A stretch of DNA of 64,000 bases from Candidatus Omnitrophota bacterium (GTDB lineage: Bacteria > Omnitrophota > Omnitrophia > Omnitrophales > Aquincolibacteriaceae), in contig JBDRCT010000033.1 of NCBI GenBank assembly GCA_043821445.1, positions 5,391 to 69,390 on the forward strand, read 5' to 3'. Under the pieces are notes generated by a model, which saw nothing but the letters and a program-made list of their open reading frames with translations, made no database searches and was not told the DNA's origin. The position numbers and the translations under genes were made by a program. Positions 328 through 62,680 of the stretch are shown here, piece by piece (positions within the stretch are counted from its first letter, which is position 1; each line of letters starts with the position of its first letter).

Positions 328-1002
328 TTAAAGCCTATTTCCAGCCCTTCGGGGGGCTGCTTTATATGCTGAGGGACACAAATCTTGAATCTCACAATGC
401 CAACAATCCGGCCGCCGGGCAAAACAACGGACACGGCCATGATGAATGATCAGATGCGCATAGAGCGTCCAATCCTTTTCCGGCACTAACTCCATCAAAT
501 CGAATTCGATCCTCACGGGATCCACGTGGCGCGTCGCCCCCAACAAACGATTGATGCGGATCATATGCGTATCCACCGGGATCCCGGGGATCCCGAAAGC
601 GTTCCCCAAAATGACATTGGCCGTCTTCCGGCCCACTCCCGGGATCGTAATGAGATCTTCCATCCGGGCCGGTACTTCTCCGCCAAATTTTTCAAGGATC
701 GCCTTCGCGGCGCCAAGAATATTCCTGGTCTTGTTCCTGTAAAAGCCCGTGCTCCGAACCGCTTTCTCAACCACCCCAGGATCCGCGGCTGCAAAGGCAC
801 ACATGTTTGGATACTTTTTAAAAAGAGCCGGCGTTACCCGATTCACGAGCTTATCAGTGCACTGGGCGGAAAGAACCGCCGCCACCAGAAGCTCCCACGG
901 TGTCCGAAAATAAAGGGCGCACCGGGTATCCGGATAAGACTTACGCAACCGGAGAAATATCGTACGCACGCGCCTTTTTTTGTCCGCAAATGTCTCTTTC
1001 AT
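328..1002 (-). CDS. nth: endonuclease III (DNA glycosylase/AP lyase)
   Basis: ORF 328..1023 trimmed to MKETFADKKRR; HhH-GPD motif (LITIPGVGRKTANVIL) and C-terminal C-x6-C-x2-C-x5-C [4Fe-4S] cluster loop. Confidence 0.9.
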   Translation of the reverse strand: MKETFADKKRRVRTIFLRLRKSYPDTRCALYFRTPWELLVAAVLSAQCTDKLVNRVTPALFKKYPNMCAFAAADPGVVEKAVRSTGFYRNKTRNILGAAKAILEKFGGEVPARMEDLITIPGVGRKTANVILGNAFGIPGIPVDTHMIRINRLLGATRHVDPVRIEFDLMELVPEKDWTLYAHLIIHHGRVRCFARRPDCWHCEIQDLCPSAYKAAPRRAGNRL

Positions 1003-1076
1003 GGATAATAATATACTACACACAAGCTTTAGTGTTGAAATCTATCCTGACTTTTATTTTCTTTTTTAAAATGGTG

Positions 1077-1128
1077 GTCAGGATTGCCCCAATTTCCACG
1101 CGGTAGAAATTGAAGAGGATTGGGACTC
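1077..1128 (-). repeat. GTCCCAAT(N)...GAAATTGGGGC repeat (family B), intergenic copy
   Basis: Reverse complement reads GAGTCCCAATCCTCTTCAATTTCTACCGCGTGGAAATTGGGGCAATCC; divergent promoter region of nth/adh. Confidence 0.5.
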
Positions 1129-1191
1129 AATGTCATCCGCATTGTCCTCTGTTTATATTTCAAGTATACTTCGCAAAGAGGAAGAATTTTT

Positions 1192-2229
1192 ATGGCAAAG
1201 ATGAAAGCTGTTGTTTTCAAAAAGCATGGTACGACGGCAGAACTTGAAGAAGCTTACGTGCCCATCCCGGAACTCGGGAAAAAGGACGTCCTGATCAAGG
1301 TCAGGGCTTGCGCGCTGAACCATTTGGATCTTTGGACGCTTGCGGGCATGCCCGGCATCAAGATCAGCATGCCGCATATTCTCGGTTGCGATATCGCGGG
1401 CGAAATCGTTGAAAAAGGCAAAAAGGCTCATGGGATCCCGCTTCATAAACCCGTGATCGTCGCGCCCGGCATTTCCTGTGGTAAATGCTCTTACTGCAAA
1501 TCGGGCTGGGACAGCCTTTGCGCCCATTATGAGATCGTCGGATTTCAGAACAATGGCGGGTTCGCGGAATATGTCAAGGTCCCTGCACGGAACATCATCC
1601 CTGTCGCCGGTAATCTTGGCCTGGAATCCTGGGCCGCGGTGCCGCTTGTGTTCTTAACGGCGTGGCATATTCTCGTGACACGGGCCGCTCTCCAGAAAAA
1701 AGAGACGGTGCTTGTTCAAGCCGGCGGAAGCGGGATCGGCAGTGCGGCGATTCAGATCGCAAAACTTCTGGGGGCACGGGTGATCACCACAGTGGGAAGC
1801 GAAGAAAAAGTCAAGCGGGCCAAAGCGCTCGGCGCGGATTCTGTTATCAATTATAAACTAAAAGATTTCCGGACCGAGGTCATGCGCCTGACCCAAAGTG
1901 AAGGCGTTGACGTTCTTTTCGAACATGTCGGAGGCCCCACATTCACCCAAAGCGTGTTGTGCCTCAAGAAAAAAGGCCGGATCGTCACCTGCGGAGCCAC
2001 CACCGGCCGCACCGTTAGTTTTGATCTGCGTTATCTTTTCACGCGCCAGCTTTCCGTCATGGGCTCTTACATGGGCGGCATTCCTGAGCTTCAACGCATC
2101 GTCCGACGCATTCAAGACGGTCGCTTGCGGCCTGTGATCGACCGGATATTCCCGTTGCGGGAAGCGCGCCAGGCCTTGAATCGCATGGCCTCCCGGGAGA
2201 ATTTCGGAAAAATTATTTTAAAACCTTAA
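1192..2229 (+). CDS. zinc-type alcohol dehydrogenase / medium-chain dehydrogenase-reductase family oxidoreductase
   Basis: MAKMKAVVFKKHG...; GHE-like Zn ligand region (CALNHLDL, GCDIAGEI), structural-Zn Cys cluster (CGKCSYCKSGWDSLC), Rossmann motif QAGGSGIGSAAIQ; RBS AAGAGGAAG upstream of ATG 1192. Confidence 0.85.
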   Translation: MAKMKAVVFKKHGTTAELEEAYVPIPELGKKDVLIKVRACALNHLDLWTLAGMPGIKISMPHILGCDIAGEIVEKGKKAHGIPLHKPVIVAPGISCGKCSYCKSGWDSLCAHYEIVGFQNNGGFAEYVKVPARNIIPVAGNLGLESWAAVPLVFLTAWHILVTRAALQKKETVLVQAGGSGIGSAAIQIAKLLGARVITTVGSEEKVKRAKALGADSVINYKLKDFRTEVMRLTQSEGVDVLFEHVGGPTFTQSVLCLKKKGRIVTCGATTGRTVSFDLRYLFTRQLSVMGSYMGGIPELQRIVRRIQDGRLRPVIDRIFPLREARQALNRMASRENFGKIILKP

Positions 2230-3302: not shown

Positions 3303-4118
3303 TTACATCTTGGCGTCTTCGACATCCGTTATTTTGAATGCAATGAACATATAAACCAAATTGACCAGGATCATGACCCCGAACGGCAGTGGCAGCTTCC
3401 GAAGAGGCGTCATGATCTGAAACCATGTCAGGGTGAAGGACACGGTCGTAGCAAAACACGTGAGAGAAAGAATAGCTCCGTAACGAAGTTTTTGCTTCCT
3501 CATTATGTTGAACAAAAGCCCGACAAGCGAATAAAGGAGGTCCGCGATCATGATGAAAAAGAAGAACAGGGCGATCATCACGGGCGGAACGATCACAAGC
3601 ATCGTGCTTTTGATAACTCTAAAGAGACCTCCCACGACTTCGCCGGTGATCCGGACCTTGGGCGGCAGTTGTTTCTCTGTCTGGATCCCCGCCTTGGTAA
3701 TATCCCGCTCTTCGATCTGCCCCGGTGCCCGTTTCACAAAAACTTTTGTCGATGTCACAAACAAGGGAGCCTTGTCCATATCCGCTTCACTCGCGGATGT
3801 TTTGGTCATATCAAAGGCAACGACTGGGCCGTACCGGGGATGGGACAAAAGGGCGGTCGTCTGACCATTCTCCAGAGAAATTCCCTCGGGCGTCCAGATT
3901 ACGACCGGCATGGTCTCCTGAGCCCAGGAAACAAATTCATTTGCGACGGGCAACATCCTGCCGAGCATCAAAACCGCGGTCAATACGCCGGCGATCACCG
4001 AAAGATAAAAAACATAAAGCACTCCCTTCCAAGCGGATCTCTTTGCGGCATCATGAAAAACGCGCGGATGGAAAAGCGCGGTAACGGGAGCGAGCCAAAA
4101 AGAGAGGATGTTATTCAT
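3303..4118 (-). CDS. hypothetical integral membrane protein
   Basis: 271-aa ORF with N-terminal and C-terminal TM helices flanking a soluble loop; overlaps greA stop by 8 nt (operon). Confidence 0.5.
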   Translation of the reverse strand: MNNILSFWLAPVTALFHPRVFHDAAKRSAWKGVLYVFYLSVIAGVLTAVLMLGRMLPVANEFVSWAQETMPVVIWTPEGISLENGQTTALLSHPRYGPVVAFDMTKTSASEADMDKAPLFVTSTKVFVKRAPGQIEERDITKAGIQTEKQLPPKVRITGEVVGGLFRVIKSTMLVIVPPVMIALFFFFIMIADLLYSLVGLLFNIMRKQKLRYGAILSLTCFATTVSFTLTWFQIMTPLRKLPLPFGVMILVNLVYMFIAFKITDVEDAKM

Positions 4119-15534: not shown

Positions 15535-15555
15535 CTGGAACCCCCTTATTTTTTA

Positions 15556-15602
15556 GTCCCAATACCTATCAATCTCAAACTTTTTGAAATTGGGGCAATC
15601 CT
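15556..15602 (+). repeat. family B repeat, intergenic copy directly upstream of DUF4870 gene start
   Basis: GTCCCAATACCTATCAATCTCAAACTTTTTGAAATTGGGGCAATCC. Confidence 0.55.
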
Positions 15603-15833
15603 TGTCAATCATTTAGAAAAAAATACAAGACAAGGATAGAAGCTCATTGCGGAATATTGTACCTCACTTCCAGGAAAAAACGATACCCTTCTTTCTCTGG
15701 CAAGATTAAAATAGGCCCTGTTCCGCCGACAATGCTTCACATCCCGTGTTGTGAAATATGAGACTTGCATATCATGCGCCGGATGTGGAAGGGGTGGCCA
15801 CTTGCCCCCCTCATTCCAAAAAAGGAGACAGTT

Positions 15834-17842: not shown

Positions 17843-18337
17843 CTACTCGAGGACTTGTTTGAAAAATTTGACGAACATTTCGGGGGTAACGCCAGTTGAA
17901 AGTTGTACGGCCCTGCCAGGCTGGGGCGGGTGAAGGAAAAAAGATGGATATCCGCGGACCCTGTATTGAAACGCGATATCATCCTCGCGTCTCCCGGATT
18001 CGGGATTGATATTGACTTTGATCATGTCCTTCATCATATCTTTGACAAGAGGCGACGACAGCACCCCTTTTTCGAACTTGCGGCAATAAGGGCACCACCT
18101 GACGCTCATATAAACGACCATCGGTCTATTGGTCTGCTTGTATTCTTCGACCGCCTGATCGTACCCGGAAGCACCCTGGTACCAACCCTCGGACCACTGA
18201 CCCGTAGCCGGTGCCCCGGCAGGCGTTGAAACGAATGGTGTGTACGATGCCCGTGGATCTTCGGCGTAGCATTCCGAACCCATGAGTAGAAGAGATAACA
18301 AAAAGAGCGAAACGATTTTTCTAGAATTCACATTCAC
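17843..18337 (-). CDS. secreted thioredoxin-fold protein
   Basis: Signal peptide; WCPYC CxxC active-site motif. Confidence 0.55.
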   Translation of the reverse strand: MNVNSRKIVSLFLLSLLLMGSECYAEDPRASYTPFVSTPAGAPATGQWSEGWYQGASGYDQAVEEYKQTNRPMVVYMSVRWCPYCRKFEKGVLSSPLVKDMMKDMIKVNINPESGRREDDIAFQYRVRGYPSFFLHPPQPGRAVQLSTGVTPEMFVKFFKQVLE

Positions 18338-18345
18338 CCCGTTAG

Positions 18346-18452
18346 AGATAGGAAACGTTTTTAAATAAACGCTTCCGTTTATGGCACAAATGCCCGCCTA
18401 AAGTTCATTCCCCTTCTATGGCAAATCGCCCGCAGAAAAATCTCTAACGGGG
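18346..18452 (+). mobile_element. MITE-like element, TIR family CCCCGTTAGAGATAGGA...TCTCTAACGGGG (copy 1, ~107 bp)
   Basis: Left terminus CCCCGTTAGAGATAGGAA, right terminus TCTCTAACGGGG (exact reverse complement); intergenic. Confidence 0.6.
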
Positions 18453-20598: not shown

Positions 20599-22569
20599 CT
20601 ATTTGCTCGGTATAAGCCCGAATGCAAAACCTTTTTTTACCTTAGCGATAAGCTCGGGGAGAACTTCCTGATAATCGCGGACCATACCGAAATCCGCATG
20701 GCGAAAGATCGCGGCCTGAGGGTCCTGATTGATGGCGATGATCTTACCGGATTCTTTCATCCCCGCGAGGTGCTGGATAGCTCCGGAGATGGCGACGGCG
20801 ACATAGATCTTCGGACGGACGGTCTTTCCGGTCTGCCCGACCTGACGCGCATAGGGAGCATAGCCGTTGTCCACCGCGTGACGGCTCGCGCCCCAATCCG
20901 CGTTAATACCCTGATCTTGCAAGGCCTTCGCGAGTTCCTGGACCAGCTTGAAATTGTCGTGATCGCCGGCCGGCCGGCCCCCGGAAATAATGATATCCGC
21001 CACAAAGAGGTTGTCGCCGCCTCCCGCCTCGCGCTTGACTTCGATCACCTCCACCGCGAAATCACTTTCCCTGAAGGTGGGCATAAATTCGCGAACGGTC
21101 CCTTTCCGGTTTGTGTCTTTTGGCAATATTTTGAAAGTCCCGGCTCGCGCGGTCGCCATCTGCGGACACCAGAACCCGATGATGGTCGCAAGCTTACTTT
21201 CGCCGTAAGTCGGACGGATGGATTCAAGGCATGGATACATGATCGCTTTTCGAATGCGGTGCACATATTCCCCGACATTTAGGCTTGTGCAATCCGCCGT
21301 CACGCCGGCCCTCACGCGGCTCGCGAGCCTCGGTGCGAGTTCGCGGCCCGAAGTCGTTGCTCCAAAAAGCGCGATCTCAGGCCGTTGATGCTCCATCCAC
21401 TGCGCGAGAACAGCCGCCACCGGAAGGATCCTGTACTCTTTGAGGCGCGGATCATCCACGATCACGACCTCGTCGGCGCCTTGCGCGATGATCTCGGAAG
21501 CCACGTTCTTGATGTTATGCCCGGTCACGACCGCAGTCACCTGGGTCTGGAGTTGGTCCGCCAGCTTCCTTGCAGGATTCAGGATCTCAAGGGAAGAGCG
21601 TGCCGGTGTTTGTCCGTGCATTTCGATCCAGGTCAGAATGCCCCGTGCGCCGTTGCGGAAATCCACTCTTGGAAAGTCTACATCCGCTGTGGCCTTTTCC
21701 CCATCCGCACCTTTTTCATCTCCGGACCCCGCATGTTCTCCGTGGCCTCCGCTGATCGTGTCCTTGATCTTTTCGATCTCGGAGACAAAAGCCTCCACAA
21801 GATCTTTGGGCTCACGACCGGAGATCATGTTGACCGGCGGCCTGTCTTTTTGAATATCCACGACCTTCGACACGAGCGTCGGTGACCCATTGAGACCTAC
21901 CACGCTGGCGTCAGCCCCGGTTTGATCAAGCGTCCAAACCTCCGTCTGGGTGTTCTTCGCACGGATCGCTCCTTTGAGAGAGGGCCGGCGCGCCGGGGTC
22001 GCGGTCGGAGCAATAGAAATAAGACACGGGATGGGAACTTTGAGGACTTGATACCCCCCTTCGATGATGCGGCGGACCTTCAGATGGTCTCCCTTGAATT
22101 CTACCTTTTCTACAAAGGTCGCTTGAGAGATCCCAAGATTTTCCGCGGTCTGAGAAGGCACATGCGCCGTATCCCCGTCTGTTGTCTGGCGCCCGGAGAA
22201 AATGATGAAGGGATCCTTACTCTCTTTGGAGAATCCGAGCTTTTTGAGAAGCGAAGCGATCGCATGGCCGGTGGCGAACGTGTCCGACCCTCCAAGCTTC
22301 CTATCCGAGAGCAGTACCGCGCGGTCATACCCCATGGCCAAGGCCTTTTTAAGCGATTGTTCAAAACTCATGGGCCCCATCGAAACCACGATCAATTCCG
22401 CGTCCGGAACACACTTTTTGATCTGAAGCCCTTGCTCCAGGCCGAACGTACAGTCGGCATTGATCGAGGATTTCGCCTTGGTGCGGTCCATAAGCCCGTC
22501 GGCGCCCATCCGCATCTCGGTCGGGAGCGGCACTTGCTTCATGATGGTGATGATCTTTAAGCCCATATC
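20599..22569 (-). CDS. electron transfer flavoprotein, fused beta (N-terminal) and alpha (C-terminal) subunits
   Basis: Single 657-aa ORF: residues ~1-260 are EtfB-like (MGLKIITIMKQVP...VSMGP), a Gly/Asp-rich linker, then an EtfA-like domain with FAD-binding C-terminus (IYVAVAISGAIQHLAGM...IIAINQDPQAAIF). Confidence 0.8.
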   Translation of the reverse strand, partial: DMGLKIITIMKQVPLPTEMRMGADGLMDRTKAKSSINADCTFGLEQGLQIKKCVPDAELIVVSMGPMSFEQSLKKALAMGYDRAVLLSDRKLGGSDTFATGHAIASLLKKLGFSKESKDPFIIFSGRQTTDGDTAHVPSQTAENLGISQATFVEKVEFKGDHLKVRRIIEGGYQVLKVPIPCLISIAPTATPARRPSLKGAIRAKNTQTEVWTLDQTGADASVVGLNGSPTLVSKVVDIQKDRPPVNMISGREPKDLVEAFVSEIEKIKDTISGGHGEHAGSGDEKGADGEKATADVDFPRVDFRNGARGILTWIEMHGQTPARSSLEILNPARKLADQLQTQVTAVVTGHNIKNVASEIIAQGADEVVIVDDPRLKEYRILPVAAVLAQWMEHQRPEIALFGATTSGRELAPRLASRVRAGVTADCTSLNVGEYVHRIRKAIMYPCLESIRPTYGESKLATIIGFWCPQMATARAGTFKILPKDTNRKGTVREFMPTFRESDFAVEVIEVKREAGGGDNLFVADIIISGGRPAGDHDNFKLVQELAKALQDQGINADWGASRHAVDNGYAPYARQVGQTGKTVRPKIYVAVAISGAIQHLAGMKESGKIIAINQDPQAAIFRHADFGMVRDYQEVLPELIAKVKKGFAFGLIPSK

Positions 22570-24250
22570 ACAAGTTCTCGTATTCCGGTCCGTCGCCGCC
22601 ATACGGCACGGCCCATTCGATGTTCCCGAAGGGATCTTTGATGTCACAGGTCTTGCAATGCACGCAATTGGCCGGATGAAGATGAAGGTCTTTTTTCCCG
22701 GTCTTTGAATTTGTTACGATCTCATAAACCTCGGCCGGACAGAAATACTGGCACGGCCCGCCGTATTTCGGGATACAGACGTCCCGGCAAAGATTGAAGT
22801 CCAGTACCCGGAGATGGCACGGTTGCTCTTCGTCGTGCTTGGAACCGGAGAAAAAAACGTCGGTCACTTTGTCGAACGTCAGCTGTTTGTCAAAAATGAG
22901 TTCCTTCGCGAAATTCTTGCAAAATGGTTTTTTGACGTCCGAGAGTTTCCTGTAACAAGCCGCGTCCTCGTGTGTCTTCATCTTTCCCGAAGGCGTGATG
23001 CCGCGTCCGCCGGTCAATATCTGCATCGCGAAATGGAACGCCCCGAGGATCATCCCGTGCCCGAACCCGGCCCGGAAATTACGCGTGCGGGACAGGGTTT
23101 TGAATCCGGCGCTTTCCTTGAACAACTTCTCGTAAAGACCGAGTTTCTTCGCCGAGAAATCATTTTCCTTTAAGGCGCTGAACGCGGACTTCGCGGCAAG
23201 CATCCCGGACTCGATCGCGAGATGAACACCCTTCAGGCTCGGCATGCTGAGAAATCCCGCGGAGTCCCCGACGATCATGACCCCGTCATGGCAAAGCTTA
23301 GGCAAAGAATAAAGGCCCCCTTCCGGGATCGTCTTGGCACCGTAGCACAGAAGCTTCCCCTTTTCGAAGATCTTGGCGATGAAAGGATGTTTTTTATAGA
23401 CCTGGAGCGCCGCGTGGGAATCGAACGTGGGGTCCGTATAATCCAGCCCCGCCGCGATCCCGACCACGGCCTGGCGTCCGTTCAGGCCGTAAATGAAACC
23501 GCCGCCGAAGTGATTGAAAGAGAAAGGAAACCCGAGCGTGTGCATGATACGCCCGGCCTCAAAAGTCCCTTCCGGAAGGTCCCAAAGCTCCTTGACGCCC
23601 GTGGAATAAACCTGAGGATTGGAGTTTTCTTCCAAATTCAGTTTGCGGCAGAGCGCCTTGGTCAGACTGCCGCGGGGCCCTTCGGCCAGGATGGTAACCT
23701 TGGCGCGGATCTCGTTACCCGCCTGGAAATTATCCATCGGGTGTCCGTGCTTATCCACGCCGGTATCGATCGTCCTCGCCCCGATGACGCGGCCGTTCTC
23801 ATAGAGCATTTCGGAGACGCTGAACCCCGGATAAACTTGCACGCCCTTTTTCTCCGCGATCTCAGCCAGCCACCGCGTCATTTTCCCGAGAGAGACCACG
23901 AAATTCCCGTGATTTCCCATGAAAGGAGGCGTGAAAGGAGCTTTTAAAGCGAGTTTCGGGGTCAAAAAATAAACGCCTTCTTTTTTGACGGGAGATTCGA
24001 ATGGAAAATCCTTGGGGTCGACTCCGGGGAGGAGTTCCTTCAGCGTAGACGGATCGACCACAGCACCGGAAAGCGTGTGGCTCCCGATCAAACTTCCCTT
24101 TTCAAGGACCAGAATGTTCCAGGGAAGCTTGGCGTCCTCTCCTTTGGGAGCAGAGGCGGCCGCGAGGTCCGCAAGATGGATGGCAGTCGCGAGACCCGCA
24201 ACACCGCCGCCCACGATCAGAATGTCTGTTTCAACCACTTCGAACTTCGA
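22568..24250 (-). CDS. electron-transfer-flavoprotein:quinone oxidoreductase (FixC-like flavoprotein with C-terminal 4Fe-4S ferredoxin domain)
   Basis: N-terminal FAD motif ILIVGGGVAGLATAIHL; C-terminal CVHCKTCDIKDP ferredoxin motif; stop overlaps start of the EtfBA fusion gene. Confidence 0.85.
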   Translation of the reverse strand, partial: SKFEVVETDILIVGGGVAGLATAIHLADLAAASAPKGEDAKLPWNILVLEKGSLIGSHTLSGAVVDPSTLKELLPGVDPKDFPFESPVKKEGVYFLTPKLALKAPFTPPFMGNHGNFVVSLGKMTRWLAEIAEKKGVQVYPGFSVSEMLYENGRVIGARTIDTGVDKHGHPMDNFQAGNEIRAKVTILAEGPRGSLTKALCRKLNLEENSNPQVYSTGVKELWDLPEGTFEAGRIMHTLGFPFSFNHFGGGFIYGLNGRQAVVGIAAGLDYTDPTFDSHAALQVYKKHPFIAKIFEKGKLLCYGAKTIPEGGLYSLPKLCHDGVMIVGDSAGFLSMPSLKGVHLAIESGMLAAKSAFSALKENDFSAKKLGLYEKLFKESAGFKTLSRTRNFRAGFGHGMILGAFHFAMQILTGGRGITPSGKMKTHEDAACYRKLSDVKKPFCKNFAKELIFDKQLTFDKVTDVFFSGSKHDEEQPCHLRVLDFNLCRDVCIPKYGGPCQYFCPAEVYEIVTNSKTGKKDLHLHPANCVHCKTCDIKDPFGNIEWAVPYGGDGPEYENL

Positions 24251-24382
24251 CATAGGAATATGAGATCTCTCGAGAGGAAATTCTAAAAATTGAGGCGGTA
24301 TTTTAACATAAATTTGTCGGCGAAAAAGAGAAAAGTTGTTTTTTGCTCTAGAGAACAGCCACTGGAAGAAAATCAACCCCTG

Positions 24383-24488
24383 CCCCGTTAGAAAAAAACG
24401 GGATGTTGCTTTTGGTTATTTTACGCGTCTCTTCTCGCCACGCTTCTTCCTGTGTTCTGCAACAACCGGTGTCAGTTTTCTAACGGGG
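24383..24488 (+). mobile_element. MITE-like element of the same TIR family (copy 2, ~106 bp)
   Basis: CCCCGTTAGAAAAAAACGGG ... TTTTCTAACGGGG; right terminus provides the last three codons and the TAG stop of etfA. Confidence 0.55.
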
Positions 24489-25517
24489 TGAAGCGAGGAG
24501 CTCGTTCACCTTGGCCATAACGGCGAAGGCATCGGCCACGTAGAGCACATCGGCCTTCCCTTGGGCCCAGCCGCAATTGGCGTCCATATTGACCGCGCGG
24601 CGTTCGTTGATAAAGCGCCAGCCGACCACGTGCGGTTCTTCTCCGTGACAGCAGGTGGAAAGGCCCTTCGGATGACGCGGCGTGGCGCCGGTCTGTCCGA
24701 CCTGGTTGAGATGGCTCATGAAGGAAAGCACCGCTTCCCCTTCCGACCCCTGGTCCACGAGCGATTTGCTGCTCCCGAGCGAGGCCTTGGCGTGTTTCAA
24801 GAAATCAAGAATATGTTTTTCGGCTTCCTTGGCATGGATCTGGCCATCCACCTGTTTTTTGGTCCATCCGGCACCCGCTACGAGCAGCACCGCGGCCTCC
24901 GGGCGAATGGTCTGCGCGTCTGCGGAAGGCGCTTCAACACCCGTCACTTTTGTGCGCTTTTCCTGGTCCGTCACAGCAACGGCAACCGCTTCCATTTTCG
25001 CCGCGCCTTTGGCCCCCTGCCACACCTCGAACACGCCGGAATCCACGGCGAGGATCCACGGCCGCGCCGCGCGAGTCAGTGTCGCCAACATGCGCTGACG
25101 ATAGTACCAGCGCTGGACCTGCAAAACGCCGCCGGTGAACTGTAGGCCGCTCACATGCGTATCGATCGTGGCCTTTAAACGGAATGCCGCGCCGGGCAAT
25201 GCCCTGGAAAAACGGGACGTTGCAGGGGCAACGATGATCGTCGCTCCCGAAGCGGTTCCGATGGCTTCCGCGGCTTTCACATCCGTTGCGTAACGCGAGG
25301 TCCCGAAATCAGCACCGCTCACGCCGAGCATTTTTGCTGCGCCGCATGCCGCGATCGAATCCGCGGCGGCCTGGACATTCTCCCCGACAAGACCGACGGT
25401 AAGCGTGGAACCCGCGAGGCCTTTCTGGACCTCAAGCGCCGCGTTTAAGGTTTCAAGCGCGACCTTCGGAAGAAGGCCGTTTGCATCCGTATGAGCTAAA
25501 AAGAGTATTTTTTCCAT
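24480..25517 (-). CDS. etfA: electron transfer flavoprotein alpha subunit
   Basis: 345 aa, EtfA N-domain and FAD-binding C-domain; last codons (SPR-stop) are encoded by the terminal inverted repeat of a MITE copy. Confidence 0.85.
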   Translation of the reverse strand: MEKILFLAHTDANGLLPKVALETLNAALEVQKGLAGSTLTVGLVGENVQAAADSIAACGAAKMLGVSGADFGTSRYATDVKAAEAIGTASGATIIVAPATSRFSRALPGAAFRLKATIDTHVSGLQFTGGVLQVQRWYYRQRMLATLTRAARPWILAVDSGVFEVWQGAKGAAKMEAVAVAVTDQEKRTKVTGVEAPSADAQTIRPEAAVLLVAGAGWTKKQVDGQIHAKEAEKHILDFLKHAKASLGSSKSLVDQGSEGEAVLSFMSHLNQVGQTGATPRHPKGLSTCCHGEEPHVVGWRFINERRAVNMDANCGWAQGKADVLYVADAFAVMAKVNELLASPR

Positions 25518-25786
25518 TATAGCCGTCCCCCCGTTAGAGATAGGAAGCGCTTCAATCGATTCTTCAAAAAACGTTTCCCCATCCCTGTTTTTAAATATCG
25601 TTCCCTTACTACAGCATCATTGATATCTATACAAGCTTCGTAATAAATTACCTCGAAAGGACCGCGCCCTTTAGTTGAAGCAACCCTGCCCTGCGAATGC
25701 TCCTTGAAGCGCTTCCGTAAATCTTTGCAAAATCCGGTGTAGAATTTTTTATCCCTCTGACTTTGCAAAACATACGTATAAAACAT
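25517..25786 (-). CDS. small stand-alone GIY-YIG nuclease-family protein (YhbQ/UPF0213-like)
   Basis: MFYTYVLQSQRDKKFYTGFCKDLRKRFKEHSQG...GPFEVIYYE...ERYLK matches the GIY-YIG catalytic core; lies between etfB and etfA, inside a 281-bp element with CCCCGTTAGAGA/TCTCTAACGGGG termini; its TAA stop overlaps the etfA ATG. Confidence 0.75.
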   Translation of the reverse strand: MFYTYVLQSQRDKKFYTGFCKDLRKRFKEHSQGRVASTKGRGPFEVIYYEACIDINDAVVRERYLKTGMGKRFLKNRLKRFLSLTGGRL

Positions 25787-25809
25787 TCCTCAACCAATCT
25801 CTAACGGGG
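25529..25809 (+). mobile_element. 281-bp member of the same TIR family carrying the GIY-YIG ORF (candidate autonomous or cargo-bearing copy)
   Basis: CCCCGTTAGAGATAGGAAGCGCTTC at the left, TCTCTAACGGGG at the right; fills the etfB-etfA intergenic space exactly; internal 89-aa GIY-YIG gene with SD supplied by the terminus. Confidence 0.6.
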
Positions 25810-26619
25810 TTAACCTCTTATCCAGGTTACGATCTCTTGGGCGATCTCTTCGACCGGCGTATCTTTGACGATGCGTGTCTGGCGCTGCTGCTTCGGCAGC
25901 TCCACGCTTGCGAATTTGATGGCGTCGGTCTTGAGCGCCGCGGGGGTCGCCTTCTGAAGGGCCGGCATAATGGTACGCATGTTCGTCATCCCGACCTGAG
26001 GATTGTTCGGCGGTTCCGGAAGATTTCCGGTCGCCCATCCGATCACGGCCGGGGCCCCGGCGCATGTGGAAACCAGGTATTGCCCGCCCTCGATACGCTC
26101 GAGGACCCTGAACGAGCCGTCCGGCTGGACCTTGAGTTCGTCGGCTGCAAGAAATACGTCATGGATCCCGAGCTGTTCGGCGATCATCTGCATCGTGGTC
26201 CCCGCGTCACGCGAAGCGGAGGAACAGCCGCCGAAGACGAGAAGCTTCGTTTTATCAAGTCCCGGGATCTTCTCGATCGCCCCGGCCAGGGCCGCCGCGA
26301 CTTCCCTTGAATCCATAAAACCGCTCGCGGAACCGTCAAGGCACACAAGCTCGAAGGGGACCTTCTGGGCGATGATCATCATGAGCTGTTGGAGCTTGGC
26401 TTTGGGCCCGAGGCTTAGGAGCGTCACCTTGCTTCCCGGGTTCTGCTTCGCGAGATTTGAGGCCTCAAAAAGGGAGTGCCCCGCCCACGGGTCCAGCACC
26501 GAAGGCAGCATCATTTCATTCTTAAGAGCGGGTCCGGTCGCCCCCTGGATCGGCTCCAGCGTCTGGAGCGGGTCCGGCACCAGACTCCCGCAGACTACGA
26601 TGTTAAAAGCTGTCGTCAT
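25810..26619 (-). CDS. etfB: electron transfer flavoprotein beta subunit
   Basis: 269 aa, EtfB fold (MTTAFNIVVCGSLVPD...LLSLGP...). Confidence 0.85.
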   Translation of the reverse strand: MTTAFNIVVCGSLVPDPLQTLEPIQGATGPALKNEMMLPSVLDPWAGHSLFEASNLAKQNPGSKVTLLSLGPKAKLQQLMMIIAQKVPFELVCLDGSASGFMDSREVAAALAGAIEKIPGLDKTKLLVFGGCSSASRDAGTTMQMIAEQLGIHDVFLAADELKVQPDGSFRVLERIEGGQYLVSTCAGAPAVIGWATGNLPEPPNNPQVGMTNMRTIMPALQKATPAALKTDAIKFASVELPKQQRQTRIVKDTPVEEIAQEIVTWIRG

Positions 26620-26627
26620 AATTCCCC

Positions 26628-26697
26628 TCCTTAAAAAATCAATTGAAAATTAGGACTGCCCAAGTCGCCGTTCATTAAAAGAAAACCAAGACTTGGG
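26628..26697 (+). repeat. hairpin element of the same family (copy b)
   Basis: TTAAAAAATCAATTGAAAATTAGGACTGCCCAAGTCGCCGTTCATTAAAAGAAAACCAAGACTTGGGCG; flanked by 14-bp direct repeat CGTCATA(A/G)TTCCCC containing the etfB start codon. Confidence 0.6.
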
Positions 26698-26708
26698 CGT
26701 CATAGTTC

Positions 26709-26838
26709 CCCCGTTAGAGATAGGATGCGCTTCTACTTTAAGAGCGCATCCGCTTGTTAATGAAATATAACCTTTTAATCCTTTACCCTCCGATAGAAAT
26801 CTCTTTCAAAAATATCGTCAAACCGATCTCTAACGGGG
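26709..26838 (+). mobile_element. MITE-like element of the same TIR family (copy 4, ~130 bp)
   Basis: CCCCGTTAGAGATAGGATGCGCT... (9-bp perfect hairpin GGATGCGCT/AGCGCATCC) ... GATCTCTAACGGGG. Confidence 0.6.
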
Positions 26839-26929
26839 TAAACCTTCCCTATTGAATGATTTCTGGGGAAACCGCGTCTTTATTGGGTCACTGGGCGGAC
26901 ATTATAATGAGGGAACTACTTTTCGGCTA

Positions 26930-27012
26930 GTCCCAATTCCATTCAATCGAAGCGAAGCTGAGATTGGGGCAATCCTGGCTACCATTTTTCAAAAGAAAAC
27001 AAAAGTCAGGGC
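26930..27012 (+). repeat. family B repeat with downstream hairpin module
   Basis: GTCCCAATTCCATTCAATCGAAGCGAAGCTGAGATTGGGGCAATCCTGGCTACCATTTTTCAAAAGAAAACAAAAGTCAGGGCAG. Confidence 0.5.
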
Positions 27013-40395: not shown

Positions 40396-41082
40396 TCAAT
40401 TTCTTGGATTCCCGATACCCGCCCCGTCACAAATGATGGCGCGCCGCCTCAATTCGAAGAAGCATTTCACGCAACAAAGCACATCGGACGCCGCATTGTG
40501 CTGATCTTCAAAATCCACATCGAACAGCTTGACATGAAGCTCGGATAATTTCGGCCACTTGTTGCCGCCCAAACTTTTCATTTCTTTTCCAGGATGGTAG
40601 TTTGGACGGCCCCAATCTCCGCTTTGCTTCGATTGATTGGTATTGGGACCGTACGACCTCGGGATCTTGCAAAACTTCGTCGAGCTTTTCATGGTGCATA
40701 TTTTTTTGATCGTCCGTAGCCCATCCGGCATTCCCCGGCGCAAAAGCTCCACCCGGACCATTTTTTCATCGAAATCCAGATTATGCGCCACAAGACACGC
40801 GACACCCGGGATCGCTCCGGAGAACTCCCTCAAAACCTCCGCGGCCGGGCGCCCTTCTTTCAATGCCCTTTCGGTGCTGATGCCGTGGATCGCCGTCGCG
40901 CTTTCGGGGATCACGAAACCTTCCGGTTGGATCATGTGATCGTGAAGCTCAAGCTGTGTCCCGTCTTCGTCAAAAAGCGCCCAGGCGATCTGAACGATGT
41001 GCGGCCAGTTCCCGAGATCGGAAACGGGGGCCTTCCAGCTTTTCGGCAATCCGGTCGTTTCCGTATCAAAAAAAAGATACAT
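40396..41082 (-). CDS. DnaQ-like 3'-5' exonuclease (DEDDh family) carrying an in-frame repeat insertion
   Basis: MYLFFDTETTG Exo I motif, HNLDFD Exo II, NAASDV Exo III; ~30-aa segment (GPNTNQSKQSGDWGRPNYHPGK) is encoded by a copy of the GTCCCAATACC...ATTGGGGC repeat. Confidence 0.7.
   Translation of the reverse strand: MYLFFDTETTGLPKSWKAPVSDLGNWPHIVQIAWALFDEDGTQLELHDHMIQPEGFVIPESATAIHGISTERALKEGRPAAEVLREFSGAIPGVACLVAHNLDFDEKMVRVELLRRGMPDGLRTIKKICTMKSSTKFCKIPRSYGPNTNQSKQSGDWGRPNYHPGKEMKSLGGNKWPKLSELHVKLFDVDFEDQHNAASDVLCCVKCFFELRRRAIICDGAGIGNPRN
40600..40649 (-). repeat. family B repeat inserted in-frame inside the exonuclease CDS
   Basis: Minus-strand GGTCCCAATACCAATCAATCGAAGCAAAGCGGAGATTGGGGCCGTCC translated as GPNTNQSKQSGDWGRP. 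Confidence 0.55.
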
Positions 41083-41805: not shown

Positions 41806-42998
41806 ATTTGCATCCAGTCTTTCAACACCGGCTGGTACCCTTTGGCGACGAGCATCGCTTTGAACTCTTCGACGCTCCGCGGGTCCGAGATCTCAAACTG
41901 GGAAGCATCCTCCCCTTCCGCCCCGACTTTTATTTTCTTTTGATCAACGGTAGTCGGGACGGCCCCAATTTCAACCCCGTTAAAATTGATAGGTATTGGG
42001 ACCGGAGATCCGAGCGTGTGGCCGCCGACGCGTGTCGTCGAGCCCGCCGACATGCGCGTGACCCCGAGAGGCAAAAGATGCTCGCGCAGCGAAGCGCTTT
42101 CCCGCGTGGAAAGCGTGATCCCGATCCGCGGCAGGAAAAGCCTCAAGGCCACGATGATCTGCGTCATGTTCCTGTCGCTTACCTCCGTCATTTCTTTGAA
42201 ATCCCCGGCATGCGGCCTCAGACGCGGAAGCGAAACTCCGATCTCGACCTCTCCGTAGCGGTCCTGCAAATACCGGGCGTGAAGGCCCACCCAGAAAACT
42301 TCTTTCCGCCAATCATTCAATCCCAGAAGCGCCCCGACGTTCACGCTTCTCATTCCATTCTTCGCGGCGCGCTCCGGCGCGTCAAGCCGGAAGCGGAAAT
42401 CTTTTTTAGGCCCCGCCTTATGCACCTGCTCATAAACCTCCGCATCATAGGTCTCCTGATATAAGGTCAATCCATCGACACCTGAACGTACGAGGTCCGC
42501 GTATTCCTCTTCCGTGAGTGCGTAGATCTCGACGGCAAGAGAGCTGAAATATTTTTTGAGTACTTTGAGGCATTTTTTGATATAGGACAGCGGACTTTTT
42601 TCCCTCGAATCTCCCGTCAGGATAAGAAGATGCTCGATCCCTGTCGAAGCGATGAACGCGGCCTCTTTTTCCACTTCTCCCAAAGTCAGTGTTCTCCGAG
42701 GTATTTTGTTCAGGGTATTGAACCCGCAATAAGCGCACTCATTCTCGCAATAATTCGAAAGATACATCGGCGTGTAAAGCTGGAGGGTCCTGCCAAAGTG
42801 CATCAGGGTCAAGGCATGCGCCCTTTGCGCCATGGGCTCTAACAATCTTTCCGCAGCCGGAGAAAGAAGCGCCAAAAGACGCGCGGGATCTTGCGCGTCG
42901 GAATGGATCGAACGCTCAACGTCTTGGAGTGAAATCTCACGGAAGATCTTCTCGGAAGGAAGGTCCTTATATTTCAGAAGGGTATCGTAGTAGCTCAT
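41802..42998 (-). CDS. thiH: 2-iminoacetate synthase (tyrosine lyase, radical SAM) with in-frame repeat insertion near C-terminus
   Basis: CENECAYCGF radical SAM motif, ThiH-specific C-terminus (...QFEISDPRSVEEF...PVLKDW); ~25-aa insertion VPIPINFNGVEIGAVPTTVDQ encoded by repeat copy at ~41952-42003. Confidence 0.8.
   Translation of the reverse strand: MSYYDTLLKYKDLPSEKIFREISLQDVERSIHSDAQDPARLLALLSPAAERLLEPMAQRAHALTLMHFGRTLQLYTPMYLSNYCENECAYCGFNTLNKIPRRTLTLGEVEKEAAFIASTGIEHLLILTGDSREKSPLSYIKKCLKVLKKYFSSLAVEIYALTEEEYADLVRSGVDGLTLYQETYDAEVYEQVHKAGPKKDFRFRLDAPERAAKNGMRSVNVGALLGLNDWRKEVFWVGLHARYLQDRYGEVEIGVSLPRLRPHAGDFKEMTEVSDRNMTQIIVALRLFLPRIGITLSTRESASLREHLLPLGVTRMSAGSTTRVGGHTLGSPVPIPINFNGVEIGAVPTTVDQKKIKVGAEGEDASQFEISDPRSVEEFKAMLVAKGYQPVLKDWMQI
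41952..42003 (-). repeat. family B repeat inserted in-frame inside thiH
   Basis: Minus-strand GTCCCAATACCTATCAATTTTAACGGGGTTGAAATTGGGGCCGTCCCGAC translated as VPIPINFNGVEIGAVPT (different frame from the exonuclease copy). Confidence 0.55.
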
Positions 42999-48542: not shown

Positions 48543-48679
48543 ATTAGGGTTGATGATAACCGCCCAATTTCCGCCCAAGTCTTTGTTTTCTTTTAATCAA
48601 TGGCGACTTGGGCGGCACTGATTACCTTCATTTTGAAACAGAATCAAGTGCCGCTACGTAGAAATTGATAGGTGTTGGG
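48543..48679 (-). mobile_element. 137-bp composite repeat element inserted at the pyk/ABC-F junction with a 26-bp flanking direct duplication
   Basis: Contains GCCGCCCAAGTCGCCATTGATTAAAAGAAAACAAAGACTTGGGCGG hairpin (reverse orientation) plus TCCCAACACCTATCAATTT module; flanked by ACGGTCATTGTCTAAGATTCTTTTCC (48517-48542) and ACAGTCATTGTCTAAGATTTTTTTCG (48680-48705). Confidence 0.6.
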
Positions 48680-48683
48680 ACAG

Positions 48684-49703
48684 TCATTGTCTAAGATTTT
48701 TTTCGGTAAATTTAATGATCTGGCTCATCATTTCAACGCATTGAACGGGATAAAGGCCAGCGGCAGATTCGGCGGAAAGCATCACGTAGTCCGTTCCATC
48801 GAGAATTGCGTTCGCCACATCACTGACTTCGGCGCGGGTCGGGATGGGATGTTCCGTCATGCTCTCAAGCATCTGGGTCGCCGTGATCACGAATTTCTTC
48901 GCCTTATTGCATTTCTTAATGATCTTCTTCTGAATCGAGGGCACTTCATAAATCGGAACAGAGATCCCCATATCCCCGCGTGCGACCATGATCCCTTCGC
49001 AAACGCTTATGATTTCATCGATATTTCGGATCCCTTCCCGGTTCTCAATCTTGGCGATCACGTCGCATTCGTGGGAGTGGCTTTTCAGATGAGACCGGAG
49101 ATCTAAAATATCCCTTTTATTCCGTACGAAAGATTGTGCGATATAATCCACTTTATGCTCGATGCAAAAATGAATGTCCTCCCTGTCCTTCCGGGTCAGC
49201 CCCGTGACATCCAATTGCACGCCAGGCATATTGATTCCTTTGCGTTCTTTGATCGCACCTCCAACGATCACGCGAGTCTTGAGATTTTTTTGATCACGAG
49301 CCTCGACTTTGAGGGCAATAAGACCGTCGTCAATGTAGATAAGCTGGCCTGGTTTGATAGGTCGCAAAGAACCCACCCAATCAAAGGGAATATGGGAATT
49401 TTCTCCGACCGTGTTTTCCGTCGTGAGCCAGAGAATCTGCCGCTTCTTGACCTCGACCGGCTTCTGCCCCTTCAGCTCACCAATCCTCATTCGATAACCT
49501 TCGAGATCTCCCAGGATTTGGATGCGGCGGCGATATTTTTTGTTCAGCGCTCTGATGAGACAGATCTTCTCCCGGTGCTCCGCAAGCGTTCCGTGGGAAA
49601 AATTAAGCCGTACCACATCCATTCCCGCACGCATCATCTGCCGCAGGACATTGGCCCGGCTTGAAGCGGGACCCAGCGTGCAAATGATCTTTGTGCTCGT
49701 CAT
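48684..49703 (-). CDS. pyk: pyruvate kinase (short form lacking C-terminal regulatory domain)
   Basis: [14 protein letters not shown]..., [16 protein letters not shown]+/Mg site motifs; 339 aa. Confidence 0.8.
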
Positions 49704-53607: not shown

Positions 53608-54366
53608 TTACTCCTTTGGATTTGTTGGGGTATTAACAATGGCGTTGGCTTTCCGATAAGAGTCGAGGTCACCGATATCCAACCATTTTCCCTTAAGAGA
53701 AGAAGCAAAGAGGCCTGACGTTTCAGCCAGCCAACGCATATAATGGCCGGGTTGGTCGGTATTATGGCCGCTTGTGATATACCTGTCAAGCAGGCTCCAA
53801 GTCTCCCGGGGAAGCCAATAGATACCGCTCGAGGCCAGCGTGGTGGCGGGTTGGGGCGGTTTTTCCTGAAATTCCAGGATCTTTCCCTCCTGATCGATCC
53901 TGACAAGACCGTAGCGCTTGGCCAGCTCTTTATCCCCAACATCATAGGCCGCGATCACTCCGTGTGGCCGTTTTTTTATTCCAAAATCAACGAACGATGC
54001 CAGGTCAAAATCGAAGAAATTATCTCCTGCGATCACTAAAAGATCGCAAGGACTGACTTTCTTGATCCTGATCACATAAGCCAGGTCCCCGATGGCCCCA
54101 AGGCGGGTCTCATTACTCATCGTGTGGTCGTTCACGACCTCAAGCGGCCAGGGATATTTCATTTTCGCCGCCCAAGCTTCAAAATGCCCGGCGAATTTTT
54201 GATTGCTCACGAGATAAACGGCCTGAACACCTTGAACTTTTTGGACGCGCTCCAGGATCCATTCCAGAATAGGTTTATCCCCCACTAAAAGCAGAGGCTT
54301 CGGCATATTCTCGGTCAGCGGGTAAAGACGCGTCGCATATCCCGCGCAAAGAACGATGACCTTCAT
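53608..54366 (-). CDS. sugar-phosphate nucleotidyltransferase (NTP_transferase family)
   Basis: [27 protein letters not shown]-x-G-T-R motif. Confidence 0.75.
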
Positions 54367-54373
54367 AAGTTCA

Positions 54374-54488
54374 CCCCATTAAAGGCAGGAAGCGCCTGCG
54401 GCACTTCCGTATGCTTCGAAAATCTCATCCGCGTATCTCTCCTTGTTTTCTGCAAACCCAAGAATTCTACCGTTGATTTCTAACGGGG
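54374..54488 (+). mobile_element. degenerate member of the same TIR family (copy 5)
   Basis: Degenerate left end CCCCATTAAAGGCAGGAAGCGCC; right end TTTCTAACGGGG overlapping the stop and C-terminal codons of the PGI/PMI-family gene. Confidence 0.45.
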
Positions 54489-57518: not shown

Positions 57519-57589
57519 TAATTAAAAAAATGAATTGGAAATCATGGCTGCCCAAGTCACCCTTATTAAAAAAAACAAAGACTTGGGCG
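57519..57589 (+). repeat. hairpin element of the same family (copy c)
   Basis: AATTAAAAAAATGAATTGGAAATCATGGCTGCCCAAGTCACCCTTATTAAAAAAAACAAAGACTTGGGCG; flanked by CATGAT(C/T)TTCCTT 13-bp direct repeat; between yvcK-like and ptsH. Confidence 0.6.
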
Positions 57590-57618
57590 TCATGATTTTC
57601 CTTGATCAAAATGGGCAA

Positions 57619-62566: not shown

Positions 62567-62567
62567 A

Positions 62568-62680
62568 GTCCCAATACCTATCAATTTTAACGAAGTTGAA
62601 ATTGGGGCTGCCCTGATTACCATTTAGGAAAAGAAAATAAAAATCAGGGCTGTCCCAACTACTCTTTATATAAAAAAATC
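62568..62680 (+). repeat. family B repeat plus hairpin module, abutting the lpxL-family start codon
   Basis: GTCCCAATACCTATCAATTTTAACGAAGTTGAAATTGGGGCTGCCCTGATTACCATTTAGGAAAAGAAAATAAAAATCAGGGCTGTCCCAAC; three GTCCCAA/TTGGGAC-type units. Confidence 0.55.

Follow-up and report, generated by a model that had tools for sequence, protein, structure and literature searches.

The window analyzed here is a 64,000-nt stretch of DNA from a Candidatus Omnitrophota bacterium (contig JBDRCT010000033.1 of assembly GCA_043821445.1), in which the etfB-like and etfA-like genes, encoded on the minus strand, are split by a 281-bp unit with perfect 13-bp inverted termini and a single ORF encoding an 89-aa GIY-YIG nuclease. 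The etf genes were identified by their matches to Pfam ETF (E 1e-9 for etfB and E 1e-19 for etfA), and an ETF-QO gene lies at 22568-24376 on the same strand. The features of the locus, together with four short non-coding copies found elsewhere in the window, are as follows.

25810-26619, minus strand: etfB-like gene, the upstream neighbor.
25529-25809, minus strand: full-length element E3 (281 bp), made up of the 5' terminus, a 10-nt spacer, the GIY-YIG ORF, and the 3' terminus inside the ORF.
25797-25809, minus strand: 5' terminal inverted repeat CCCCGTTAGAGAT (minus-strand reading), abutting the etfB stop codon TAA (25810-25812).
25517-25786, minus strand: GIY-YIG nuclease ORF of 89 aa, consisting of the 86-aa family core plus a 3-codon read-through (GRL) to a TAA that overlaps the etfA ATG.
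25543-25578, minus strand: coding counterpart of the subterminal hairpin, in which GGAAACG (codons of G-K-R) can pair with CGCTTCC (codons of K-R-F-L), next to the 3' terminus.
25529-25541, minus strand: 3' terminal inverted repeat ATCTCTAACGGGG, the last 12 nt of which encode the invariant SLTG (TCT CTA ACG GGG).
24480-25517, minus strand: etfA-like gene, the downstream neighbor.
26709-26838, minus strand: short non-coding copy E4 (130 nt), about 90 nt upstream of the etfB start, with perfect termini and a 9-bp subterminal hairpin (ssDNA fold z = -5.0); it is absent upstream of etfB in the relative L129.
24383-24488, minus strand, although the strand is uncertain because there is no hairpin: degenerate short copy E2 (106 nt; fold z = -3.9), whose termini CCCCGTTAGAAAA / TTTTCTAACGGGG are still 13/13 complementary.
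18337-18452, minus strand: short copy E1 (116 nt; fold z = -5.0), sitting between a GGAGG SD and the GTG start region of ORF 17843-18337.
54374-54488, minus strand: short copy E5 (115 nt) with a decayed 3' terminus; the upstream ORF (54467-55483) ends inside it, and the downstream ORF (53608-54366) starts 7 nt after it.

The arms of E3, CCCCGTTAGAGAT and ATCTCTAACGGGG, are 13/13 complementary (16 nt at 94%), and this is far above chance: CCCCGTTAG occurs 9 times in the window against 0.34 expected, and 0 of 100 shuffles reach 9. The TAA of the nuclease ORF shares one base with the etfA ATG (TAATG at 25515-25519). The earlier note proposed that the SD of the ORF is supplied by the element terminus, but this is doubtful, as the sequence in question is a GAGGA directly abutting the ATG, which is probably too close for a canonical SD, and only 4 of 69 family members have any SD core between terminus and ATG.

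The 89-aa product matches Pfam GIY-YIG (PF01541) with E 5.7e-14 and 52.6 bits against a cut-off of 22.6. Residues Y3, Y5, Y16, G18, R26, H30, E62, and N76 are invariant in 17 diverse members, and their order suggests correspondence to the Tyr of GIY, the Tyr-x-Gly of YIG, and the active-site Arg, His, Glu, and Asn of I-TevI. The AF2 model (pLDDT 90.5) predicts elements in the order E-E-H-E-H-H, consistent with the core GIY-YIG fold, and places the stretch encoded by the hairpin counterpart in a long C-terminal helix (residues 68-85); Foldseek matches are 1zg2, Slx1, and the I-TevI catalytic domain. The best sequence and structure match is the UPF0213/YhbQ-type stand-alone protein BH0048 (PDB 1zg2; E 3e-9 by sequence and Foldseek E 2e-4), which is of similar size. 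No function or mobile context is reported for the solved proteins of this type, whereas the family described here has a distinctive basic C-terminal helix ending ..KRFLSLTG that is encoded by the element's own terminus. An exact-sequence look-up of the 89-aa protein found nothing on record.

Comparison with relatives establishes that the unit is a discrete insertion between two normally adjacent genes. Relatives with 96% and 91% identical EtfB have a 3-nt gap between etfB and etfA, which reads TAA-CCC-ATG in the 91% relative, whose DNA was read, and which was inferred from gene coordinates alone in the 96% relative; in our handles, the site is empty (etfB-TAA-CCC-ATG-etfA) in L129/L130, and a 3-nt gap is present in P0121. 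In contrast, the junction is filled, with termini, in the relatives L228 and L128. Three relatives carry the insert at this junction, so it is old and under purifying selection (dN/dS about 0.1). The insertion is not recent, being shared with lineages at pS of about 0.6. The two observations that the earlier note had offered as refuting its reading, namely the same gene at this junction without inverted termini and an ORF not conserved as coding, were not borne out.

The same architecture with identical termini occurs in four other loci (L002, L005, L128, and L228) and in 69 unique metagenome copies. An exact 16-mer scan found more than 117 genome stretches in at least 10 phyla, the same unit occurs in Omnitrophota, Planctomycetota, Patescibacteria, Elusimicrobia, and other phyla, and 543 of 600 metagenome candidates were confirmed as relatives. 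At the protein level, 1,747 clusters match, and 2,429 clusters at 50% identity reach E<=1e-10. Nearly all sources are metagenome-assembled genomes, and assignments to phyla, especially of the Methanosarcinales bins, could include binning errors. Carriage by phages or plasmids is not supported: cultured phages gave no hit and plasmids one weak unrelated hit, and only 2 hits were found in 2.9 million viral contigs. PHROGs and PADLOC searches gave no hit.

The earlier note left open whether the nuclease gene is the autonomous parent of the short copies or a hitch-hiker on a MITE. Several lines of evidence indicate that the termini are part of the gene family and favor the former. The 3' terminus encodes the invariant C-terminal SLTG and lies inside the ORF in every member. 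Its synonymous sites are frozen, with pS of 0.22 in codons 81-86 against 0.68-0.88 elsewhere (whole-gene pN/pS is 0.25), and codons 83-85 are fixed as TCT/CTA/ACG in 65-66 of 66 protein-ascertained copies. The two termini co-vary, 889 of 897 terminal pairs across the 69 copies being Watson-Crick, with compensatory changes at positions 1 and 13. A second subfamily, in which the protein ends in YLTG, has its own matching termini, CCCCGTGAGATA / TATCTCACGGGG. Finally, no element longer than about 420 bp with these termini was found in about 227 loci.

Non-coding relatives of about 65 nt and about 120 nt accompany the coding unit, and they keep the termini plus a subterminal hairpin that is conserved as structure. 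Of 86 short copies, 68 have a stem of at least 6 bp, against 7% of shuffles, with 56 distinct 3' arms, and in the 65-nt class the covariation score is 0.273 against 0.123, with 0 of 500 shuffles as high. Half of the short copies are flanked by an exact 4-nt TNNA duplication (43 of 86, against 5.5 expected and a maximum of 16 in 1000 shuffles), as are 17 of 68 coding copies (5.4 expected). The possibility that the flanks merely extend the inverted repeat was rejected, because direct repeats outnumber inverted ones 43 to 1. None of the five copies in this window has a perfect duplication, however, the flanks of E3 being TTAA and GGAC. Two short copies elsewhere are demonstrable internal-deletion derivatives of the gene, but a search with nhmmer found coding remnants in only these 2 of 86, and the internal regions of most short copies are unrelated to the gene and to each other, such that a parent-to-derivative relation is shown for no more than these two.

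Coding copies lie in sense orientation at operon junctions (10:1; short copies about 45:23) and usually have no SD and no stop codon of their own. Most use a flanking or duplicated TGA/TAA, and in the common NTGA configuration this rebuilds a stop/start overlap with the downstream gene.

Taken together, we consider with moderate confidence that E3 is a full-length member of a large family of miniature, inverted-repeat-bounded mobile elements of about 277-281 bp, whose single gene is a single-domain, 86-aa GIY-YIG nuclease apparently of the UPF0213/Ssn type. We found no description of this family, or of any bacterial GIY-YIG element with inverted termini, in the literature that could be searched; PMC12455944 merely lists a GIY-YIG gene among horizontally transferred genes. 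That the nuclease drives mobility is inferred rather than shown. In this view, it would recognize the folded, single-stranded form of the ends (terminal stem plus subterminal hairpin), as SsnA recognizes its NTS hairpin, and cut at the element boundaries, mobilizing both itself and the short derivatives. Joining would be carried out by host repair or ligation, or by a strand-transfer activity not yet known for this fold, and expression would depend on read-through transcription and translational coupling from the host operon. GIY-YIG enzymes do not appear to carry out strand transfer or re-joining, so the 4-nt duplication has no worked-out chemistry, and its lower frequency in coding than in short copies (25% against 50%) also counts against this interpretation. 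In this window, the copy is an old resident of the etfB|etfA junction, kept intact by purifying selection.

A bolder proposal, which we regard as possible but somewhat less likely than not, is that the 86-aa protein is itself the transposase of a new class of DNA transposon that, at about 278 bp, would be the smallest autonomous mobile element known. It would work on folded single-stranded ends and insert at TNNA sites, slipping into NTGA stop/start junctions of operons while carrying no promoter, SD, or stop codon, so that translational coupling of the host genes is preserved; spread across phyla, including Patescibacteria and possibly archaea, would follow from this minimal design. If the nuclease does mobilize the unit, it would add a sixth catalytic class to those of prokaryotic transposons, alongside DDE, HUH, serine and tyrosine recombinases, and DEDD. 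A small nuclease with a self-encoded, structure-defined recognition site could also be useful as an ssDNA tool.

The closest published system is that of the Ssn nucleases (cd10448) with their NTS/SRM hairpin repeats (Chenal et al. 2025, PMC11893778), in which a single-domain GIY-YIG enzyme of roughly 94 aa cuts ssDNA next to its own flanking hairpin repeats. There, too, the gene is bracketed by inverted, hairpin-forming repeats that occur many times elsewhere in the genome, mostly between genes, protein and repeat appear to co-evolve, and the authors themselves remark that NTS-ssnA-NTS looks like an insertion sequence, a speculation for which the present family, if the nuclease mobilizes the unit, would provide a testable system with clear ends, target sites, and natural non-autonomous partners. 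Here, however, the repeats are the two halves of one 13-bp terminal inverted repeat enclosing the gene, rather than two complete hairpins beside it, and the 3' half is coding. The published SRM consensus matches none of 107 elements, with one chance-level hit elsewhere in the window against a shuffle mean of 0.37. Discrete 65-, 120-, and 280-nt units with 4-nt target duplications, empty sites, and tandem arrays are not reported for Ssn, and the hosts of the present family are mostly uncultivated phyla.

REP/BIME repeats with RAYT (Y1 HUH) transposases, and IS200/IS605, likewise pair a small nuclease gene with flanking inverted hairpin repeats; dispersed intergenic doublets (REPINs) resemble the short copies, and structure-conserved hairpins imply recognition as ssDNA. 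The enzyme fold here is GIY-YIG rather than HUH/Y1, Pfam finding only GIY-YIG, so no covalent intermediate is known for re-joining, and IS200/IS605 and REPINs generally lack the terminal inverted repeats and target duplications found in this family. Bacterial MITEs such as Correia/NEMIS, ERIC, and RUP resemble the short copies in being units of 65-130 nt bounded by inverted termini, intergenic and co-transcribed with neighbors, with a short target duplication and the ability to fold as one long hairpin. Such MITEs typically derive from IS elements of 1 kb or more with DDE transposases, whereas here the only coding relative is 280 bp and encodes a GIY-YIG nuclease, and the internal sequences are highly heterogeneous while a subterminal hairpin is conserved only as structure.

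Of the alternative explanations, the one that survives best, although we consider it unlikely, is that of a domesticated Ssn-like host system, in which the nuclease is a host-serving, site-specific ssDNA nuclease and the dispersed hairpin units are its genomic recognition sites, for example to police incoming or replicating ssDNA, as proposed for Neisseria SsnA/NTS, the transposon-like features being relics. Beyond the Ssn precedent, this is favored by the observation that at the etf junction the gene has diverged in step with its neighbors (pS 0.61-0.72 against 0.48-0.73) at dN/dS 0.07-0.11, and by the presence in the window of only one coding copy against four short ones. Against it, presence or absence of the whole unit differs among relatives with 91-96% identical EtfB, decayed pseudogene copies, tandem arrays, and target duplications exist, termini are near-identical across phyla while synonymous sites are saturated, YLTG copies interrupt tyrosine-recombinase ORFs, and the SRM motif is not matched.

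More doubtful is the hitch-hiker explanation, in which the unit is a MITE moved in trans by an unlinked conventional transposase, for example a DDE enzyme that makes 4-bp duplications, and the GIY-YIG gene is cargo. A 4-nt duplication together with short inverted termini would be typical of DDE-type transposition, GIY-YIG enzymes seem to be hydrolases only, and most short copies share nothing internal with the gene. This is countered by the lack of any longer element with these termini among the loci examined, by the position of the 3' terminus within the ORF, by the concerted change of termini and protein between the SLTG and YLTG subfamilies, by the construction of the hairpin stem from the G-K-R / K-R-F codons, and by the fact that the family thrives in small Patescibacteria genomes.

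An RNA-level element is less likely still. Here, the selected feature would be a folded RNA in the operon transcript, whose terminal stem would loop the insert out and keep the upstream stop or SD next to the downstream start, or create a processing site, the nuclease being secondary. The bias to sense orientation, the location of copies between SD and start codon (as for E1), the co-varying helices, and several non-duplicated flanks that would extend the stem with G-U pairs on the sense strand are in keeping with this. However, target duplications and empty sites prove a DNA-level insertion, SsnA does not act on RNA, and covariation fits ssDNA equally well. A strand-specific wobble test gave G-T against A-C mismatch counts too small to decide (13 against 8, and 5 against 2), and no Rfam family covers the units, whether searched at E<=1 around the locus and in eight loci with 65-nt copies or at gathering score over the whole window.

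A free-standing homing endonuclease gene, akin to the phage T4 Seg proteins or the I-TevI family and spreading by cutting empty etfB|etfA junctions (GGGCTAACCCATGG) and being copied in by recombinational repair, is very unlikely: although GIY-YIG is a classic homing-endonuclease fold, insertion is between conserved co-directional genes, and the junction is filled in three lineages and empty in two, with an empty lineage nested among filled ones (the EtfB tree being too shallow to decide between gain and loss), there is no DNA-binding domain, all 86 aa belonging to the catalytic domain plus one helix, TIGR01453 scores only 23 bits against a cut-off of 56 and covers the catalytic part, the family occupies many unrelated insertion sites, flanks differ among the three filled etf junctions, and inverted termini, target duplications, and non-coding derivatives would not be expected of homing.

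The family gives a candidate function to part of the large UPF0213-like 'GIY-YIG nuclease family protein' annotation class. It also explains a recurrent source of odd gene calls in metagenome-assembled genomes, namely C-terminal extensions ending ..PR*, read-through fusions, and split operons; in this window, the terminus of E2 supplies the last two codons and the stop of etfA (..ASPR*), where relatives end ..LLAKG*.

The relevant genes are all located on the minus strand and, together with the five bounded units discussed below, are as follows:

25810-26619, minus strand, etfB-like ORF
25517-25786, minus strand, ORF of 89 aa
24480-25517, minus strand, etfA-like ORF
22568-24376, minus strand, ETF-QO
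18337-18452, unit E1, a short copy
24383-24488, unit E2, a short copy
25529-25809, unit E3, the 281-bp unit in which the 89-aa ORF lies
26709-26838, unit E4, a short copy
54374-54488, unit E5, a short copy

The 89-aa ORF matches the Pfam GIY-YIG profile at E 5.7e-14, well above the curated cut-off, and the ends of the unit in which it lies, CCCCGTTAGAGAT and ATCTCTAACGGGG, are 13/13 complementary. The 9-mer CCCCGTTAG occurs nine times in the window against 0.34 expected, a number reached by none of 100 shuffles, and the sites pair into the five units E1 to E5. The TAA of the ORF shares a base with the ATG of etfA. The arrangement described in the earlier note, in which a GIY-YIG gene within an inverted-repeat element separates etfB from etfA, is confirmed. 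The only weak detail is its claim that the element terminus supplies a Shine-Dalgarno sequence: GAGGA abuts the ATG directly, and only 4 of 69 family members have any SD core in the 5-15-nt spacer.

A homology search found 1,747 protein clusters. The identical protein comes from a Candidatus Omnitrophota MAG, and others come from Flavobacteriales and Patescibacteria bins. Members are typically 86 aa in length and all end ..KRFLSLTG, where SLTG is encoded by TCT CTA ACG GGG, which is the 3' terminus itself. The last 12 nt are TCTCTAACGGGG in 52 of 73 and TCTCTAACGGGA in 17 of 73, and a matching 5' terminus with at most 2 mismatches lies 5-15 nt upstream of the ATG in 71 of 73. Synonymous differences are near saturation along the gene (pS 0.68-0.88) but amount to only 0.22 in codons 81-86, with an overall pN/pS of 0.25. 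The two termini co-vary: at position 1 the pairs are C-G 49, T-A 17 and G-C 1, at position 13 they are T-A 47, A-T 13 and C-G 6, and in all 889 of 897 pairs are Watson-Crick.

A second subfamily of 87 aa (1,932 clusters) ends ..YLTG and has its own termini, CCCCGTGAGATA and TATCTCACGGGG, so that protein and termini change together. In this subfamily the element is also found inside tyrosine-recombinase ORFs (loci L221:1485-1761 and L213:1484-1760), at two different positions of the conserved box II region, with GYDI and TVQELLGH on either side in one case and LLGHS and KNVATTMIYTHV in the other. The reading frame is restored if A-CCCC...GGGG-T is removed (TTC^AAA), with no duplication. Small genes with the 23S_rRNA_IVP domain (PF05635) lie immediately upstream of YLTG-type GIY-YIG elements in several soil contigs (L214, L217, L218 and L220, about 996-1352, minus strand). 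No element longer than about 420 bp was found to carry the termini of the family in about 227 loci.

The bins in which the family occurs are labelled as Omnitrophota, Planctomycetota, several Patescibacteria lineages, Elusimicrobia, Riflebacteria, Nitrospinae, Ratteibacteria, Stahlbacteria, Desulfobacteraceae, Cyanobacteria and Methanosarcinales. These are MAG labels, and some may therefore reflect binning error; the occurrence of the exact 16-mer terminus in contigs binned as archaeal (L023 and L065, Methanosarcinales MAG), for example, is either cross-domain transfer or a binning error. A profile search of 1.84 billion representatives gave 2,429 clusters at E<=1e-10. The family is essentially absent from cultured phages and plasmids and has only two matches in IMG/VR.

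In the genome loci, the units fall into three size classes of about 65 nt, about 115-130 nt (the most common) and about 277-285 nt. Short units keep both termini and have, directly 5' of TATCTCTAACGGGG, a hairpin that opens with GG, closes with CC and is preceded by AC. A stem of at least 6 bp is present in 68 of 86, against 7% of shuffles, and there are 56 different 3' arms, so the structure is conserved but the sequence is not. The 65-nt class is a compact three-helix fold: on an unforced alignment, 91.6% of cells pair, against 83.6% in shuffles (0 of 500 as high), and the covariation score is 0.273 against 0.123 (0 of 500 as high), whereas slid controls give 38-47%. The window copies E1 and E4 fold as ssDNA with z of about -5. 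In coding copies, direct reading of the sequence shows the same stem to be made by the codons of G-K-R and K-R-F, a stretch that encodes the long basic C-terminal helix of the AF2 model. Two short copies (in loci L005 and L061) retain recognisable 5' coding sequence and are internal-deletion derivatives, while the other 84 share only ends and hairpin.

There are signs of insertion at the DNA level.

Exact 4-nt duplications flanking the elements (set; copies with the duplication; expected from shuffled flanks)
Short copies; 43 of 86; 5.5 (maximum 16 in 1000)
Coding copies, protein-ascertained; 17 of 68; 5.4 (maximum 11 in 2000)

In the short copies the repeat abuts both termini, a 5-nt repeat occurs only twice, and shifted offsets give 0-2. 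The repeat has the form TNNA or YNNR (TTCA, TTTA, TAAA, TTGA, TCAA, CTAA), and direct repeats outnumber inverted ones 43 to 1. An equivalent description is a 2-nt duplication, with an element-borne A and T that rebuild TNNA at both junctions. None of the five window copies has a perfect duplication. Head-to-tail arrays of two or three units also occur (L057:about 3350-3634, L032:2012-2579 and L005:2982-3411), separated by the same 4-nt spacer as the outer flank (TTCA, TTTA/TAAA) or by 5 nt.

Coding copies sit between co-directional genes in sense orientation, at a ratio of 10:1 where both neighbours could be called, and short copies are biased about 45:23. Examples are found between pgk and tpi (L005), between a methyltransferase and a glycosyltransferase (locus L002) and between etfB and etfA. 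In 47 of 68 coding copies a stop codon follows SLTG immediately, so the ORF has no stop of its own. Thirteen upstream ORFs terminate at the TAG inside the 5' terminus, and 16 downstream ORFs start at the G/ATG formed by the last terminal base plus the TG of a following TGA. In the TCCC..GGGA subfamily, by direct reading, ATGAA before the element and TGAA after it rebuild the ATGA stop/start overlap on both sides. Unit E1 lies between a GGAGG and the start region of a secreted-protein ORF. These features read as adaptation to translationally coupled junctions, although this is an inference.

Two host ORFs of the window end inside elements. At 24480-24488, E2 terminates etfA in the manner of those upstream ORFs, giving ..ASPR and a stop where relatives have ..AKG and a stop, and at 54467-54488 the 338-aa ORF 54467-55483 runs 7 codons into E5, ending ..PVRNQR. 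The element's lack of a stop or SD of its own causes a recurrent annotation artefact, seen in gene calls that fuse the nuclease to neighbouring ORFs or that translate the termini (N-terminal ..MNPVRD.., C-terminal SLTGVNPVRD), namely the predicted proteins P0255 (600 aa), P0248 (237 aa), P0051 (104 aa) and P0086 (92 aa).

The etf junction was compared among relatives, of which the filled ones carry the inverted termini.

The etfB/etfA junction in the window and in relatives (lineage; EtfB identity to window; junction, with el denoting the element)
L129/L130; 91%; empty, GGC-TAA-CCC-ATG
P0121; 96%; empty, 3-nt gap
L228; 95%; filled, TAA-GCCCTGA / el / TGAAC-ATG
L128; 86%; filled, TAG / el / TAAAC-ATG
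Window; not applicable; filled, TAA / el / GGACGGCTATA-ATG

P0002, the nearest homologue of the nuclease, has the same gene spacing. Between filled lineages the nuclease gene has pS 0.61-0.72, like its neighbours (0.48-0.73), and dN/dS 0.07-0.11. An EtfB tree, which is shallow and weakly resolved, nests the empty P0121 with the window and L228. Thus, at least two gain or loss events happened at this junction, and the window copy is an old, selectively maintained resident rather than a fresh jump.

The AF2 model of the protein has pLDDT 90.5, with the order beta-beta-alpha-beta-alpha-alpha. The nearest solved proteins are the uncharacterised UPF0213 proteins BH0048 and EF2693, followed by Slx1 and the I-TevI catalytic domain. 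The motif residues are invariant, and there is no DNA-binding domain.

Full-text literature searches found no description of a bacterial GIY-YIG element with inverted termini. The closest published system is the Ssn family (PMC11893778), single-domain GIY-YIG proteins of about 94 aa (CDD cd10448) that cut only ssDNA next to a hairpin repeat (NTS/SRM), which flanks the gene and occurs in hundreds of copies. The authors of that study note its IS-like look and the analogy to RAYT/REP, but report no termini, duplications, empty sites or non-coding derivatives, and their SRM consensus matches none of 107 elements here. We therefore regard the present family as one that is inferred to work like an Ssn/repeat pair but that has the anatomy of a transposon.

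In terms of mechanism, we infer that the nuclease recognises the folded single-stranded ends and cuts at the boundaries, that it mobilises the short copies in trans, and that joining is performed by the host or by an unknown activity. We hold the overall account with moderate confidence, it being more likely than not, whereas its strong form, in which the GIY-YIG protein is the transposase, is put forward only tentatively. The main alternative, a domesticated Ssn-like host function, appears unlikely, and mobilisation in trans of the gene as cargo slightly more so. An RNA-level role and, last of all, homing are considered improbable.

A hairpin of about 100 nt at L121:7252-7356 weakly matches miRNA-precursor models on both strands (E 0.015-0.5), but is probably another long palindromic repeat and is not one of the elements studied. 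The window itself contains a second, unrelated dispersed repeat family of about 50-90 nt, found in both orientations, at 210-259, 1042-1128, 15552-15628, 26647-26703, 26928-27010, 40565-40651, 41918-42004, 48572-48623, 48645-48704, 57568-57593 and 62566-62650. Its core is GTCCCAATACCTATCAAT..AATTGGGGC..CCTGACTTTTATTTTCTTTT, with an internal hairpin (CCCAAGTC..GACTTGGG), and two copies bracket E4 upstream of etfB.
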